Of a stretch of DNA of 64,000 nucleotides, positions 26,121-32,620 are shown piece by piece; position 1 is the stretch's first letter, and the number at the start of each line of letters is the position of its first letter. Below the pieces are notes generated by a model that was not told where the DNA came from, ran no database searches, and worked only from the letters and a program-made list of their open reading frames with translations. Made by a program: the position numbers and the translations under genes. Source of the stretch: Phycisphaeraceae bacterium (GTDB lineage Bacteria; Planctomycetota; Phycisphaerae; Phycisphaerales; Phycisphaeraceae); contig JANQKT010000029.1 in the NCBI GenBank assembly GCA_028280965.1, positions 260 through 64,259 on the forward strand. The letters run 5' to 3'.

Positions 26121-26192
26121 AAGGCGATGATGCCCAATGCCGTGTTCATCGGGTTTACTGGCAAACCGCTGCTGGCGAAGGATCGAGAGACT
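26121..26192 (+). pseudogene. hsdR: Type I restriction subunit HsdR relic, left piece
   Basis: KAMMPNAVFIGFTGKPLLAKDRET (helicase motif III FIGFTGTP-like); continues in frame on the minus strand from 32159. Confidence 0.75.
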
Positions 26193-26397
26193 GCAGGTTC
26201 GCTGACTTCAGATTGCTCTAGTGGTACAGCAGCTTTCTGAGCAAGCCATGCGTCGGTTAAACGATAATAGGCGACCGGCTTTCCTCGCTGTCATACGGGC
26301 CTAAACACTCATCCTTACCGTCGAGCGTCACGGCAGCGCGGCCTGAGGGCTTGTGAAGGCGGTATTTGGGGCGTTGTCCGGGCTTGAGCGGCACCAC
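26193..26397 (-). pseudogene. Tyrosine integrase relic, N-terminal piece
   Basis: PKYRLHKPSGRAAVTLDGKD.CLGPYDSEESR, then frameshifted AYYRLTDAWLA; typical start of planctomycete phage-type integrases; ~105 nt downstream of the tRNA 3' end. Confidence 0.72.
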
Positions 26398-26407
26398 TGT
26401 TGGCCCA

Positions 26408-26427
26408 AAAACGGTAATTACCGTTTT
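26408..26427. promoter_or_regulatory. Perfect 20-bp palindrome upstream of the integrase relic
   Basis: AAAACGGTAATTACCGTTTT. Confidence 0.55.
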
Positions 26428-26501
26428 CGGGAGGTTTGAGGCCGCTCTGCTTCACGCGGAACCGGTTCGCTAAGATTGGTGAAAATATGGACTTGTCTAA
26501 A

Positions 26502-26574
26502 AGCGGGTGAAGGGATTCGAACCCTCGACATTCAGCTTGGGAAGCTGACGCTCTACCAACTGAGCTACACCCGC
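26502..26574 (-). tRNA. tRNA-Gly(CCC), intact
   Basis: GCGGGTG..CACCCGC acceptor stem; TCAGC-TTCCCAA-GCTGA anticodon arm; GTTCGAA T-loop. Confidence 0.97.
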
Positions 26575-26603
26575 GTTGCGGACATAAGCCGCTGCGATCC
26601 ATG

Positions 26604-26632
26604 ATTTTACACCGACGAGGTTTCGTGGGCAA
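26604..26632 (-). promoter_or_regulatory. Promoter of the intact tRNA-Gly
   Basis: TTGCCC-N17-(TG)TAAAAT. Confidence 0.7.
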
Positions 26633-26773
26633 GCGCCTCCGAAATGGAGATGACAACCATGTTTCCAACCAAACGGGCGCCCGGGGGCGTTTCGGTGGCA
26701 CCCCGAGCGACGATCGCTTTTATGTGACCGGTAGGTGACCAATGGTGACTCATGCTCGTTGCATAGCGTCCTA

Positions 26774-26855
26774 GGTTTCGGTTGCGGCAGCTGATAGGGA
26801 CTGGTCGCTATGAATGAAGGAGGCTAAACCATGGGTTGTCGCCGCAACCGAAACC
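26774..26855. repeat. Perfect 15-bp inverted repeat enclosing an SD sequence and ATG
   Basis: GGTTTCGGTTGCGGC (26774-26788) and GCCGCAACCGAAACC (26841-26855). Confidence 0.7.
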
Positions 26856-30600: not shown

Positions 30601-30832
30601 GGACCCTGTTGCAAACTATCAAAATGCACTGCGAACAAATGCGACTATTGTTGAAACTTCTCGGGTTGGGGACAGGATGTGGGCAGTTCCTGAGGGCTGG
30701 CAAAATTACAAAGTGCAATTGCGACCCCACTTGTTCCCATATGATTCAATTAAGAGCGGCCAAGAAGTGCCGTGCTGTGTGCAGTTCACTTTCTACGGGC
30801 CCGAAGTCGTACCGGAGACGGAATTGCAATGA
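27689..30832 (+). CDS. Multidomain protein: degenerate SIR2-like, STAND-like P-loop, TPR/helical repeats, possible C-terminal OB-like domain
   Basis: VLWLG / W.AIFAVN / YCLHG / FLFCIG; ESGSGSTT (variant Walker A) and LIVYD (Walker B); TLGRIYEQW and other TPR-like helices; V.FTFYGP C-terminus. Confidence 0.62.
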   Translation: MEHNVTKYDATSYDPAWSTSINSRNAVLWLGSNAPSLLADNEALSDLLELPWQAIFAVNPLTPVMEARAALRGKGRGSKLRIITEDPAFIEIGNESAPVYCLHGLESAPGSVGLSALQSQRRYLNMLTKVPAHQFLFCIGLDGDKDLKKVSEGIESSASPGKAIISSELRPLLDDRDLRIPEVILWNRDESELISSLRQQIITTQTGDAYQLRLFSDSGYISVNLSDCEQPGNLVLDKYSLITESDLSVAGEPSSQDLEDFLTDPTNSWKPYSLGIPCKRGREYEDNLLKLLRKALEKGKQASATAYIEVESGSGSTTLIRQISHSAALEGYPVLVAHQDLRSFDTRQLDSFIRLAEKKIKAQANRILPWLIVYDSPNLMGDFSTICQLGRKLARPVIILVALPHTLNSYKSDLWQASPLGQELRNRVTLSEAVDIGEHFSKILRPEQRRNKEEWAQFIAEVSRNGPHGTESLFWIALRFWLLRTKGANEPLKNWLARLFDEAVGDNQLLRASLLEIAAVSNYRLALPLCLISREARPVVLDMANNKSNPISLERFRGSKSYEIGFSHPLIGAELIRIAENSHESLASIDKNHSYSIHDIELTLFQRLLSRKEAGKNECSDFITELSSTALRVDQFELPRNYEERDRIVQILESVPDPVFDSNPIFLHRLAIARRHLAAKPPHSELWWTKPENVREQFELAESHIKVAINITTLADDPIEPLDNLFTTLGRIYEQWSEFESSVGDKDRSLAYEEAAERAYLSAEQFNPDNIKLINTLANRYLKLAQKNPGTPDSVRMLVDAISLYGRVLATESRDNRDETLQHYALALNLLKDGSGKALLDDMMARGEESAFIAAAQIRYAESNNDPSELRGVIALLQKIEGASKSWRSYELLYTVLSTLEPFNFNRRLELLDSLSTTEFAWPLQKLLERTILSHQTGDHATAEKLYRTIRKSLQTRNIRLSIPEEMKFLMDPVANYQNALRTNATIVETSRVGDRMWAVPEGWQNYKVQLRPHLFPYDSIKSGQEVPCCVQFTFYGPEVVPETELQ

Positions 30833-31647
30833 CAGAATCAAGTGATACTGTATCTAAGAAACGCTCTAGCTTTCCCTCACCCAAAAGGATGGTGAGCCAG
30901 GAAGTTTTTACCCTAGTCGATGACATAATACGTCGAGACTATCTTCTAGATCCGCTAAAGCCATATACGATATTCACTGAAGGCAACAGCGATTGTGAAT
31001 TCATCAGGACAGCGTGCCTTGCTATTAAAGTTGAGTGGGGCATTGACTTGCTAACCATTGATATGGGTGGAACTAGTCATGCAATATACTTGCAAACACC
31101 TAAGAAGCCAGAGGCGCCAGATCGCGGCGGAGTACAGCAACTGGTTAGACTGGGAGAAGAATTAAGTGTCTGGAAAAACCGGATTGACTTCCCTCCAGTT
31201 GCGTTTCTATTCGATCATGACAAAGCGGGAAAAGATGGCAGAGAAAAACTCCGCGGATCATGGAAAGATAACGACACATGCATTTCCCTTGATCCTCGGC
31301 TGCATGATAGGTGCCAACTAGATCACAAAAATGATGAAGTCGATATGGAAAGTCTCATTGATATCGAATTTCAAGCATGCTTTTTCAATGACCTCAGATC
31401 ACCTACCGCGTGGGTTCATTTCAAATCGGGAGCTATTTCCCAAATCAAATGGGAACACCCCTCTAAAAGTGACTTCTGGGAATACGTGGGTAGAGAAGCT
31501 AGAGCGGTTCACCTGCTTGAACTTGGAAGAGTAGTCTCCCGAATCCGCGAAGCGTGGGGAGTGCCAATACCATATCCTCCTTCTCTCCCGCAGTCCGACG
31601 AATGTGTGCCTACAGAACAACCAAATGACAGCCATAATGAGTCTTAA
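30829..31647 (+). CDS. Stand-alone TOPRIM (OLD-like) nuclease domain protein
   Basis: IFTEGNSD, FLFDHDKAG (DxD), DMESL; ATGA overlap with the upstream gene. Confidence 0.68.
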   Translation: MTESSDTVSKKRSSFPSPKRMVSQEVFTLVDDIIRRDYLLDPLKPYTIFTEGNSDCEFIRTACLAIKVEWGIDLLTIDMGGTSHAIYLQTPKKPEAPDRGGVQQLVRLGEELSVWKNRIDFPPVAFLFDHDKAGKDGREKLRGSWKDNDTCISLDPRLHDRCQLDHKNDEVDMESLIDIEFQACFFNDLRSPTAWVHFKSGAISQIKWEHPSKSDFWEYVGREARAVHLLELGRVVSRIREAWGVPIPYPPSLPQSDECVPTEQPNDSHNES

Positions 31648-31776
31648 TAGCTGATCATTAGGTGACCAATGGCTGGCCGACATGTAACCAAAACAGCTTT
31701 GCAAGCACATGCAAATGAAGGGCTTATTGTTTTAACTATATCTATATCAAGAGTTTTCGCAGCTGCGTATTAGCCG

Positions 31777-31814
31777 TTGGGAAGCTGACGCTCTACCAAC
31801 TGAGCTACACCCGC
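31777..31814 (-). repeat. tRNA-Gly(CCC) 5' half (38 nt): att-like junction
   Basis: Identical to 26537-26574; continues CGGCT...GAAAACTCTTGATA like the 11809 junction. Confidence 0.93.
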
Positions 31815-31843
31815 GTGAACGGCCTAAGCCGCTGCGACGCATG

Positions 31844-31872
31844 ATCTTACACGGGGCGGATTCCGTGGGCAA
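31844..31872 (-). promoter_or_regulatory. tRNA-Gly-type promoter, copy 3 (points into cassette B)
   Basis: TTGCCC-N17-(TG)TAAGAT. Confidence 0.65.
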
Positions 31873-31974
31873 GCGGCCACGGAACGGCGACGACAACCAC
31901 GTTTCTTTGAAGACCTTTGCGATCATCAAGGCGCAGGGGGAGTACTGATGGCAACAGCTTTGGAACTTGGGGAT

Positions 31975-32159
31975 AGCCCGTCCTTTTGCCAGTCATTAAG
32001 TCCCTGGGTCTTCGCCTCGAACCAAGCGTCGATCTGCTCCTCTGATCCAAGCGCCTGCTCGATGTCTCGGGCCTCGTAGATCAGGTCCAGCACGACCTTG
32101 TCCTCGACAGCTTCGCCGAACTTGTAGGTGTGGATGTAATCGCCGAAGACCTCGTAGCT
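31975..32159 (-). pseudogene. hsdR: Type I restriction subunit HsdR relic, right piece
   Basis: SYEVFGDYIHTYKFGEAVEDKVVLDLIYEARDIEQ...IDAWFEAKTQGLNDWQK. Confidence 0.75.
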
Positions 32160-32620
32160 AGCCCTAGCGACGTTCGATTGGTCGGCGAACTGGTTCTCAT
32201 GTTCGGCGAATGGGTTCAGCGGCACTACTTCAGTAACGGCGAAGTTAGCCTGGAGTGCACTAATATCCAGCACGCCTTGCGTCCGCTCGTAACCCTCTAC
32301 GGAAATCAGCCCGTTGGAGACCTCAACTTCAGCGTCTTCGAACGAGTGCGAGAGGCGATGGTGCGCTCGGACTTGTCCTAGAAAGTTGTCAACGCCCGGA
32401 TGCGACGCATCCGGATGGTGATGAGATGGGCGGCAGATCGTGAAATCATGCCGCCGGAAGTAGTTTCTGCCGGCGATGGGGTGCAAGCCCTCCGACCCGG
32501 TCGCCTTGGATTAAAGGAGGGGAAAGGTATGCAGCCGGTTGCCGAGCGAGAAGCCGTGACCGCATTGAAGCAACTGCCCCAACAGTGCGGGCGATGGTAA
32601 GACTTCACTGGTATACAGGC
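32160..32620 (+). pseudogene. Tyrosine integrase relic, core-binding region to the start of the catalytic domain
   Basis: NIQHALRPLVTLYG, in-frame TAG at 32379, VVNARMRRIRMVMRWA, frameshift, AMVRLHWYTG, then truncated before the catalytic Arg. Confidence 0.78.

Follow-up and report, generated by a model that had tools for sequence, protein, structure and literature searches.

Spontaneous inversions that arise in bacterial genomes by short-homology or illegitimate recombination can be recognised by their junction sequences, as in a chemostat survey of Salmonella, in which every experimentally confirmed inversion had an inverted microhomology of 12 bp or more (PMC3411829). The 6-kb inversion described here, found in a marine Planctomycetota genome, resembles these in involving no dedicated recombinase or mobile element and in being recognised by its junctions, but it differs from them in its overlap of 2 bp, in its two base-exact junctions and in being fixed in natural populations. 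The surrounding locus is similar to the tRNA gene (tDNA) arrays catalogued by Islander, with an intact tDNA, displaced fragments terminating in the anticodon loop and an integrase adjoining the tDNA, and it holds two tandem islands with related ends (CGGCT...GAAAACTNTTGATA). Unlike in typical Islander islands, the displaced fragments are 5' halves, a minority type accounting for 159 of 3919 islands (PMC4383910), and the integrase lies in neither island. Moreover, the orientation filter of Islander would reject island 1, as its fragment lies the "wrong" way round after the inversion. Phase-variable type I loci, with hsdS shufflons and an adjacent tyrosine recombinase, likewise bring together a restriction gene, a recombinase and inversion; however, shufflon inversions are reversible and occur between inverted repeats within hsdS genes, whereas here hsdR and the recombinase gene itself, both of them dead, are the genes that were broken, repeats are absent and a single orientation is fixed. 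In Thermococcus, the pTN3 integrase generates large inversions between tRNA genes with endpoints in tRNA-gene sequence. The present inversion is also associated with a tRNA-targeting integrase, but its endpoints lie outside the tRNA copies. We regard it as the scar of a repeat-independent rearrangement within an array of genomic islands in decay, of an ordinary kind but one that can be rebuilt to the base. Its features within the window, that is, the whole stretch of 64,000 nucleotides analysed, are as follows.

11713-11809, plus strand: R1, displaced 5' half of tRNA-Gly(CCC) with about 60 nt of upstream region, at the left end of island 1.
26121-26192, plus strand: hsdR fragment A, codons 400-423 of the HsdR of locus L001, helicase motif III region (blastn, 83% to L001 3995-4066).
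26189-26397, minus strand: N-terminal part of the integrase pseudogene (tblastn, 92% and 64% to the integrase P0001; DNA alignment to contig L081).
26193-32159: inverted segment of 5,967 bp, with breakpoints at 26192/26193 (left) and 32159/32160 (right).
26502-26574, minus strand: R2, complete tRNA-Gly(CCC) called by ARAGORN, with upstream region U2 reaching about 26671.
27689-31647, plus strand: island 2 cargo, a 1047-aa nSTAND7 NTPase and an overlapping 291-aa ORF.
31777-31905, minus strand: R3, displaced tRNA-Gly 5' half (31777-31816) with upstream region U3, at the boundary between islands 1 and 2.
About 31906-31973, plus strand: hsdR fragment C and the start of the downstream gene (blastn, 81% to L001 5864-5921).
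31974-31978: filler TAGCC of 5 nt between fragments C and B, read from the sequence, with homology ends set by alignment.
32159-31979, minus strand: hsdR fragment B, L001 codons 424 to about 484 (blastn, 87% to L001 4065-4247; tblastn, 94%).
32160-32620, plus strand: core-binding region of the integrase pseudogene, P0001 residues about 71-223 (tblastn, 78%).

The segment 26193-32159 is indeed flipped: once it is reverse-complemented, both restored joins match intact homologues continuously. On the hsdR side, fragment A reads KAMMPNAVFIGFTGKPLLAKDRET and fragment B, on the minus strand from 32159, begins SYEVFGDYIHTYKF. The sequence-only reading had them joining in frame over a 2-bp CT/AG overlap, and this is borne out, as the restored stretch of 253 nt aligns gap-free to the intact 1032-aa hsdR of L001, where the coordinates of the two pieces abut (3995-4066, then 4065-4247). 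The alignment is also free of gaps across the join in all 80 homologous loci fetched for comparison besides L001. The joined peptide shares 95% identity with L001 HsdR, itself a TIGR00348 match of 522 bits (cut-off 284.55), and it matches both Pfam SWI2_SNF2 (PF18766; E 8.7e-24, profile 141-220) and TIGR00348 hsdR (E 3.9e-17, positions 393-473) in a single stretch, placing A+B in the HsdR helicase core by sequence match. Nevertheless, the hsdR remnant is a relic and not a gene. What is left comprises codons 400 to about 484 and about 1015-1032; the stretches 1-399 and about 485-1014 are missing, and no further piece occurs elsewhere in the window or the genome, so that the nuclease domain, the two helicase lobes and the C-terminal domain of a complete HsdR are not all present. 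In addition, fragment A reads FTGKP in place of the conserved FTGTP motif, the mutated motif III position being T in 80 of 80 homologues. The same genome holds no paralogue of the pieces of hsdR or of the integrase.

Fragment C, which was missing from the sequence-only reading, comprises the last 12-18 or so hsdR codons (KTFAIIKAQGEY; stop codon at 31946-31948) and the first nine codons (MATALELGD) of an overlapping downstream gene, kept to 31973; a C-terminal motif [R]IFxIIKAQxEY directly before the stop ends HsdR in dozens of the 80 loci. The filler next to it, together with the following base, repeats the TAGCCC of the right breakpoint. Fragment C is oriented opposite to fragment B and stays inverted after one flip, so that either a multi-break event or one or more additional events must have taken place. 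Thus, the proposed 6-kb inversion restores both joins but not the whole hsdR relic, and because fragment C is inverted relative to A+B the history of the locus is more complex than one inversion. No single inversion or nested pair of inversions that we tried makes the three hsdR pieces collinear without breakpoint reuse or added deletions.

The reciprocal join concerns the integrase and was previously put forward on the order of homology only. It now has a firmer footing in P0001, an intact 388-aa integrase with a PF00589 domain, encoded downstream of tRNA-Gly(CCC) in contig L081. Minus-strand positions 26388-26189 correspond to P0001 residues 4-70 and plus-strand positions 32166-32620 to residues 72-223, with 76-78% identity between relic and P0001, giving N-terminal and core-binding homology to a tRNA-adjacent integrase. 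At the DNA level, L081 3157-3652 aligns to window 26671-26189 (85% identity) and L081 3656-4110 to window 32166-32619 (82%), and the join rebuilds tRNA-Gly(CCC) followed by the integrase, collinear with L081 and P0001 (82-85% DNA identity). One base is missing within about 10 nt of the join while the residue count equals that of P0001, the window's SEPA/SPSDVRL having the same length as SEPAVISDVRL. The relic has also decayed in other ways: small deletions removed the start codon and the N-terminal part carries a single 1-nt frameshift, whereas the core-binding piece has an in-frame stop, further frameshifts and a truncation at 32620, with homology ending at residue 223 of P0001. The PF00589 profile gives no match on contig C140, and the catalytic R..H-x-x-R..Y domain was not found. 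Pfam likewise has no match to a naive read-through of the relic, the homology coming instead from protein search and contig look-up.

At the breakpoints themselves, the only shared sequence is the 2-bp CT/AG microhomology, an ambiguity by which the segment is equally describable as 26191-32161. Within 150 nt on either side, the longest inverted match is 8 nt, which is the mode of 200 shuffles and hence chance; a repeat search yielded no repeat pair at the breakpoints and no IS was found there, so the earlier statement that neither an IS nor a long inverted repeat marks the breakpoints holds. Both breakpoints fall in unique coding remnants and not in repeated sequence, the tRNA repeats R2 and R3 lying inside the segment at 345 and 343 nt from its ends. 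We also compared the break sites by eye with the att site in the tRNA anticodon loop and found no convincing likeness.

The tRNA copies define the islands. The 36-nt 5' half is present in three exact copies, at 11772-11807 (plus), 26539-26574 (minus) and 31779-31814 (minus), and only R2 is a complete tRNA according to ARAGORN, which calls no tRNA at R1. The half in R1 (11772-11809) stops in the anticodon loop; R1 with its upstream region is 86% identical to L081 3195-3291 and is now opposite in orientation to the intact tRNA. R3 forms a direct repeat with 26537-26665 (81%) and is 87% identical to L081 3165-3291; both features are also supported by alignment A1. It is true, as had been claimed, that all three copies become direct after the flip, but this supports the inversion less than it may seem to, since in the congener G011 an inverted copy of the tRNA 5' half occurs naturally, directly after the integrase gene. 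As it stands, island 2 (R3 to R2) has the intact tDNA and a same-orientation fragment on the correct side that Islander looks for, whereas island 1 (R1) conforms to the orientation rule only once the inversion is undone in silico. No integrase homologue occurs between R1 and R2; the sole relic lies downstream of the tDNA, outside the islands. The cargo of island 2 is a passive passenger of the inversion. Its GC content is about 45% versus 65% for the genome, and its 1047-aa NTPase matches PF24404 (E 1.6e-85) with an N-terminal inactive-sirtuin domain (PF24403, E 8.5e-07; both Pfam), whereas the 291-aa ORF has no family match and PADLOC found no match in the cargo.

The junctions in sampled populations were evaluated with Logan contigs of three sequencing runs, X1 (a coral sample), X2 and X3; such contigs drop rare variants and could miss a minority un-inverted form. 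Independent contigs of X1 span both breakpoints (25000-26528 and 31787-33800) with 0-1 differences, whereas in X2, from a different study, and in X3, records of 151 and 221 nt, respectively, cross 26192/26193 with 0 differences and no loose ends; the right junction was found in X1 only. The inverted junction thus appears in contigs of three runs from two studies and the un-inverted one in none. Within the limits of contigs, from which rare variants are dropped, this argues for a fixed inversion in the populations sampled and against an artefact. Depth is 13-14x at about 60-65% GC and 20-22x at 45-52% GC, thus following GC content and consistent with one copy; for this reason a second strain or an excised circle was set aside as the source of 13x versus 22x. 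Origin of the junctions by deletion plus circle formation was rejected, as the right-junction contig extends more than 6 kb into chromosomal genes of 60-65% GC. No Logan contig runs through the tRNA repeats of 38-40 nt, so that the pieces between the two junctions are linked by the MAG assembly only.

All 15 genomes of the genus have a tRNA-Gly(CCC), often with adjoining integrases, but the flanks of the window (moa genes, ThuA and a 472-aa gene) show no synteny there, so the congeners reveal neither an empty site nor which orientation is ancestral. When JGI metagenome contigs were searched for exact copies of the left junction, in its restored and in its present form, there was no match, and no un-inverted close relative was found among them. 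The putative ancestral order is therefore drawn from two separate homologues and not from one syntenic genome.

Taken together, these observations support the inversion reading, and the locus was very probably shaped by one conservative, reciprocal illegitimate exchange that inverted 5,967 bp between hsdR and the integrase and has since become fixed. The ancestral array would have carried, on one strand, a tRNA-Gly 5' half, island 1 ending in hsdR, another 5' half, island 2, tRNA-Gly(CCC) and the tyrosine integrase. One reciprocal break-and-rejoin would then have taken place between a break behind codon 423 of hsdR and another behind codon 70 or so of the integrase, costing hsdR no base and the integrase one at most. 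Common sequence of at most 2 bp points to illegitimate recombination, and not to a homologous, IS-mediated or programmed site-specific process. As an outcome, the integrase is in two pieces, island 2 and the intact tRNA gene have been turned around, and the leftmost tRNA half is inverted relative to the intact gene, such that direct-repeat recombination can no longer remove island 1. Further illegitimate scars lie nearby, namely the hsdR deletions, the C-terminal end re-inverted behind the 5-nt filler and the loss of the catalytic half of the integrase. We infer this order of events, like the enzymatic route, from the structure of the junctions. Ku is absent from the genome, which makes classical end joining unlikely, and no alternative enzyme is indicated. 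The perfect reciprocity would also suit a recombinase or topoisomerase reaction.

The most serious competitor, though a rather unlikely one, is a single multi-break event, in which several double-strand breaks at the same time cut the hsdR-to-integrase stretch into about five fragments, three were religated (the reverse complement of a 5.7-kb piece, the C-terminal piece in plus orientation, filler, then the reverse complement of piece B) and two were lost, so that the inversion and the hsdR scramble arose at once. This "shattering" would account for the two internal deletions and the roughly 68-nt re-inversion needed beyond a plain inversion, all no further than about 250 nt from the right breakpoint, and for a filler that copies TAGCC(C) of the right junction, and it also fits the perfectly reciprocal outer junctions. 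Nevertheless, sequential independent events give the same structure, the junctions carry no relative dating, the classical end-joining route for religating multiple fragments is missing without Ku, and the truncations of hsdR at its 5' end and of the integrase at its 3' end show that scars gathered over time. A chromothripsis-like form of it, with Ku-independent religation triggered by self-restriction or by an aborted recombinase or topoisomerase reaction, and with the integrase disabled and two defence-type islands locked in, appears less probable still.

Compared with these, a programmed or recombinase-catalysed inversion, either an hsdS-shufflon-like phase switch or the island integrase acting on secondary sites, is highly improbable. 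One may argue that conservative reciprocal exchange is typical of site-specific recombinases, that the partners here are an integrase and a type I restriction gene, and that the inverted tRNA 5' half of G011 implies that inverted att-like sites exist at this locus within the genus. However, the inverted repeats of such systems are missing at the breakpoints, where the 8-nt match is chance; the breaks lie in the hsdR motif III region and in integrase coding sequence instead of hsdS or the anticodon-loop att; the integrase survives as a truncated pseudogene that lacks the catalytic domain; contigs of X1, X2 and X3, from which rare variants are dropped, show a single orientation; and, both split genes being dead, neither orientation would yield a product. 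Homologous recombination between inverted repeats (IS, rRNA or tRNA) is likewise at odds with breakpoints located outside repeats. Finally, cells might never have carried the inversion at all if it were an assembly chimera or an inverted amplification chimera of the MDA type, a concern for a 263-contig MAG, as MDA chimeras are typically joined in inverted orientation over a microhomology of a few bp. This last possibility is largely refuted and has next to no probability left: an independent k=31 assembly of X1 contains both junctions, covered to the full local depth (19.5x and 13.1x), the left one recurs without differences in X2, from a different study, and in X3, no contig holds the un-inverted continuation, and a de Bruijn assembler is not misled by a 2-bp overlap.

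In summary, the inversion has no function of its own, but the locus is a clean natural example of a base-perfect reciprocal inversion without repeats that is fixed in wild populations, in a phylum whose rearrangement mechanisms have been little studied and in a genome without Ku. It also conceals a tRNA-linked island array from tools that demand a tDNA and fragment facing the same way. Moreover, because the inversion removes the direct repeats and the integrase able to excise island 1, the defence-type cargo has been effectively immobilised.

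The 6-kb inversion at 26193-32159 is real, fixed and reconstructable at base level, and it lies inside a decaying island array. As the sequence-only reading had proposed, hsdR is split over two strands, with KAMMPNAVFIGFTGKPLLAKDRET encoded at 26121-26192 (plus; piece A) and SYEVFGDYIHTYKFGEAVEDKVVLDLIYEARDIEQ... running from 32159 (minus; piece B, to 31979), and reverse-complementing the segment in silico joins them in frame into a peptide that matches intact homologues continuously. Pfam SWI2_SNF2 (E 8.7e-24) and TIGR00348 hsdR each match this joined peptide as one stretch. 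In a scan of species-representative genomes, in which the nearest hsdR match belongs to a Planctomycetota MAG, 80 loci match residues 1-84 (or 1-81) unbroken at 77-95% identity, none of the 80 tblastn alignments containing a gap. The best locus, L001, encodes an intact 1032-aa HsdR and corresponds at the DNA level at 3995-4066 (window 26121-26192) and 4065-4247 (window 32161-31979); the restored sequence aligns to it over 253 nt without a gap. On the hsdR side, zero bases were gained or lost, and the sole ambiguity is a 2-bp CT, the CT/AG overlap already noted at the breakpoints. The gene itself is a relic: a separate deletion removed codons 1-399, and the motif III threonine present in all 80 homologues (FTGTP) reads as lysine at 26157-26159 (FTGKP), an inactivating-looking change that fits a dead hsdR under relaxed selection.

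The reciprocal integrase join, previously proposed by homology order only, now has stronger support. A protein search with the relic read-through identified P0001, an intact 388-aa tyrosine integrase (76% identity), whose contig, L081, carries tRNA-Gly(CCC) at 3254-3326 followed on the same strand by the integrase at 3443-4609. Window 26671-26189 aligns with L081 3157-3652 at 85% and window 32166-32619 with 3656-4110 at 82%; a single unbroken stretch of L081 thus corresponds to two window segments on opposite strands, divided exactly where the inversion had been proposed. At the junction the peptide is SEPA|SPSDVRL, against SEPAVISDVRL in P0001, with equal residue counts; one base is missing within about 10 nt, which could be a separate 1-bp deletion. 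The relic is decayed in other respects as well: it has lost its start codon and, besides an in-frame stop, carries two or more further frameshifts. Homology to P0001 stops at residue 223, a separate deletion having removed the catalytic half; a search of the contig for the PF00589 catalytic domain came back empty, and the genome holds no further hsdR or integrase pieces elsewhere.

The inversion is present in the DNA and not merely in the assembly, a MAG of 263 contigs (4.16 Mb, 65% GC) built from coral metagenome reads. Logan contigs from run X1, assembled independently of the MAG, jointly cross both breakpoints, covering 25000-26528 with one difference overall and none within 25950-26450, and 31787-33800 with none. 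The left breakpoint (26192|26193) is also crossed without differences by a 151-nt record from X2, a different study, and a 221-nt record from X3, another sample, and neither run has loose ends there; the right junction was observed in X1 only. These contigs are blind to rare variants, and because they are interrupted by the 38-40-nt tRNA repeats, it is the MAG assembly that links the middle piece to its surroundings. GC is lowered to 45-58% over about 25,500-33,500, and depth tracks it (13-14x in the high-GC flanks, 20-22x in the low-GC part), which fits one copy.

This low-GC region is organised about tRNA-Gly(CCC). ARAGORN finds one complete gene at 26502-26574 (minus), and an exact 36-nt part of its 5' half repeats at 31779-31814, likewise on the minus strand, and at 11772-11807, on the plus strand. 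With R2 the complete gene, R1 and R3 the displaced 5' halves and U1-U3 their upstream regions, reversing the inversion gives the following order.

Order of the array with the inversion reversed
1. 11713-11809, U1 and 5' half R1
2. Island 1, with a ThsA-like HAD-SIR2-SLOG gene, an XRE regulator and the hsdR relic
3. U3 and 5' half R3
4. Island 2, with a 1047-aa nSTAND7/inactive-sirtuin protein and a 291-aa ORF
5. U2 and the intact tRNA-Gly
6. Integrase relic
7. ThuA-like gene

In the regions 11772-11860 and 31700-31816, both displaced halves terminate at the same anticodon-loop position, are accompanied by about 60-90 nt from the promoter side and give way to related island ends, CGGCT...GAAAACTNTTGATA. 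The two islands stand in tandem and are of the minority '5'-fragment' type, which accounts for 159 of 3919 islands in Islander (PMC4383910). Neither island contains an integrase; set against L081, the integrase relic downstream of the tRNA resembles what is left of a classical 3'-side island. Near both ends of island 2 (26725-26745 and 31652-31672) stands a direct repeat, TGAYCRKTAGGTGACCAATGG, matching at 18 of 21 nt, and the related TTGGTCACCT occurs close to where island 1 starts (~11890); they may be arm-type sites, or the matches may be due to chance.

In one congener, L112 (6289-10057) holds a classical 3.7-kb island at the same tRNA: the tRNA gene is intact, the integrase convergent with it, and the far end bears a displaced 3' half, so both fragment types occur at this tRNA within one genus. 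In another congener, at L113 (9928-11461), an intact tRNA-Gly(CCC) precedes a full integrase, and an inverted 5'-half copy terminating in the anticodon loop lies 10 bases past the end of integrase homology; the tRNA 3' half and integrase, between inverted 5' halves, could in principle flip between two promoters.

Within the inverted segment, 27689-31647 encodes the 1047-aa protein, whose N-terminus is an inactive sirtuin and whose core is an nSTAND7 NTPase, and the overlapping 291-aa ORF, which has no match in Pfam, NCBIfam or PADLOC; together they resemble an uncatalogued defence-type pair. A short PEP-CTERM/dockerin ORF (27020-27526) corresponds to the C-terminal third of proteins of much greater length, encoded upstream of tRNA-Gly in L081. 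Congeners G002, G004 and G006 have similar genes close to the tRNA. Relative to the tRNA, the ORF is oriented differently from its counterparts in L081, G002 and G004. A truncated native neighbour is one possible reading, a plain member of a multi-copy family another.

The proposal of a 6-kb inversion stands, with one added complication: a third, oppositely oriented hsdR remnant, piece C. Window 31916-31973 (plus) matches L001 5864-5921, where hsdR ends and the next gene starts, and reads KTFAIIKAQGEY, a stop overlapping ATG, then MATALELGD, the first nine codons of that overlapping gene. [R]IFxIIKAQxEY-stop ends HsdR at the expected distance in dozens of fetched loci; the downstream counterpart in L001 carries an HExxH motif (HEMVH) and matched no NCBIfam family. 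Piece C stands tail-to-tail with B across a 5-nt filler, TAGCC (31974-31978), and its other flank adjoins U3, upstream of the displaced half R3, at ~31905. At present A and C share the plus strand and B is on the minus; after restoration A and B are collinear and C is inverted, and no single inversion makes all three collinear. The B/C strand switch is a second junction, left unexplained by the 6-kb inversion, and the locus requires in addition that hsdR codons ~485-1014 were lost, that the downstream gene was lost beyond codon 9, and that a ~68-nt piece was turned round again. One may argue that a single multi-break event made both the inversion and these scars, several of which are grouped within 250 nt of the right breakpoint, but we consider this improbable.

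The exchange was reciprocal and essentially loss-free, between two unique sites with 2 bp in common. The absence of an IS or long inverted repeat at the breakpoints was borne out, and inverted matches between the two sites, compared over 150 nt around each, reach 8 nt at most, the modal value of 200 shuffles. Homologous recombination is excluded by the lack of repeats, IS action by the lack of an IS, and a programmed switch by the lack of inverted sites and of an active recombinase, by the death of both partner genes and by a single orientation in three runs. Ku is absent from the genome, estimated complete, so classical Ku-dependent end joining is unlikely. We infer a conservative illegitimate reaction, which would be either a topoisomerase/gyrase-type exchange or precise religation of breaks. 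In a Salmonella survey, the spontaneous inversions that were confirmed shared 12 bp or more of inverted microhomology (PMC3411829). The present event, fixed with 2 bp, thus sits at the repeat-poor end of the known range. The kind of event is already known, and the inversion is a new instance of it.

As to consequences, the inversion would have split the integrase and flipped the only tRNA-Gly(CCC) gene, itself undamaged, along with its promoter region. R1 would now be inverted relative to R2 and R3, so that island 1 should no longer be deletable via direct repeats, and island 2 would still lie between them.
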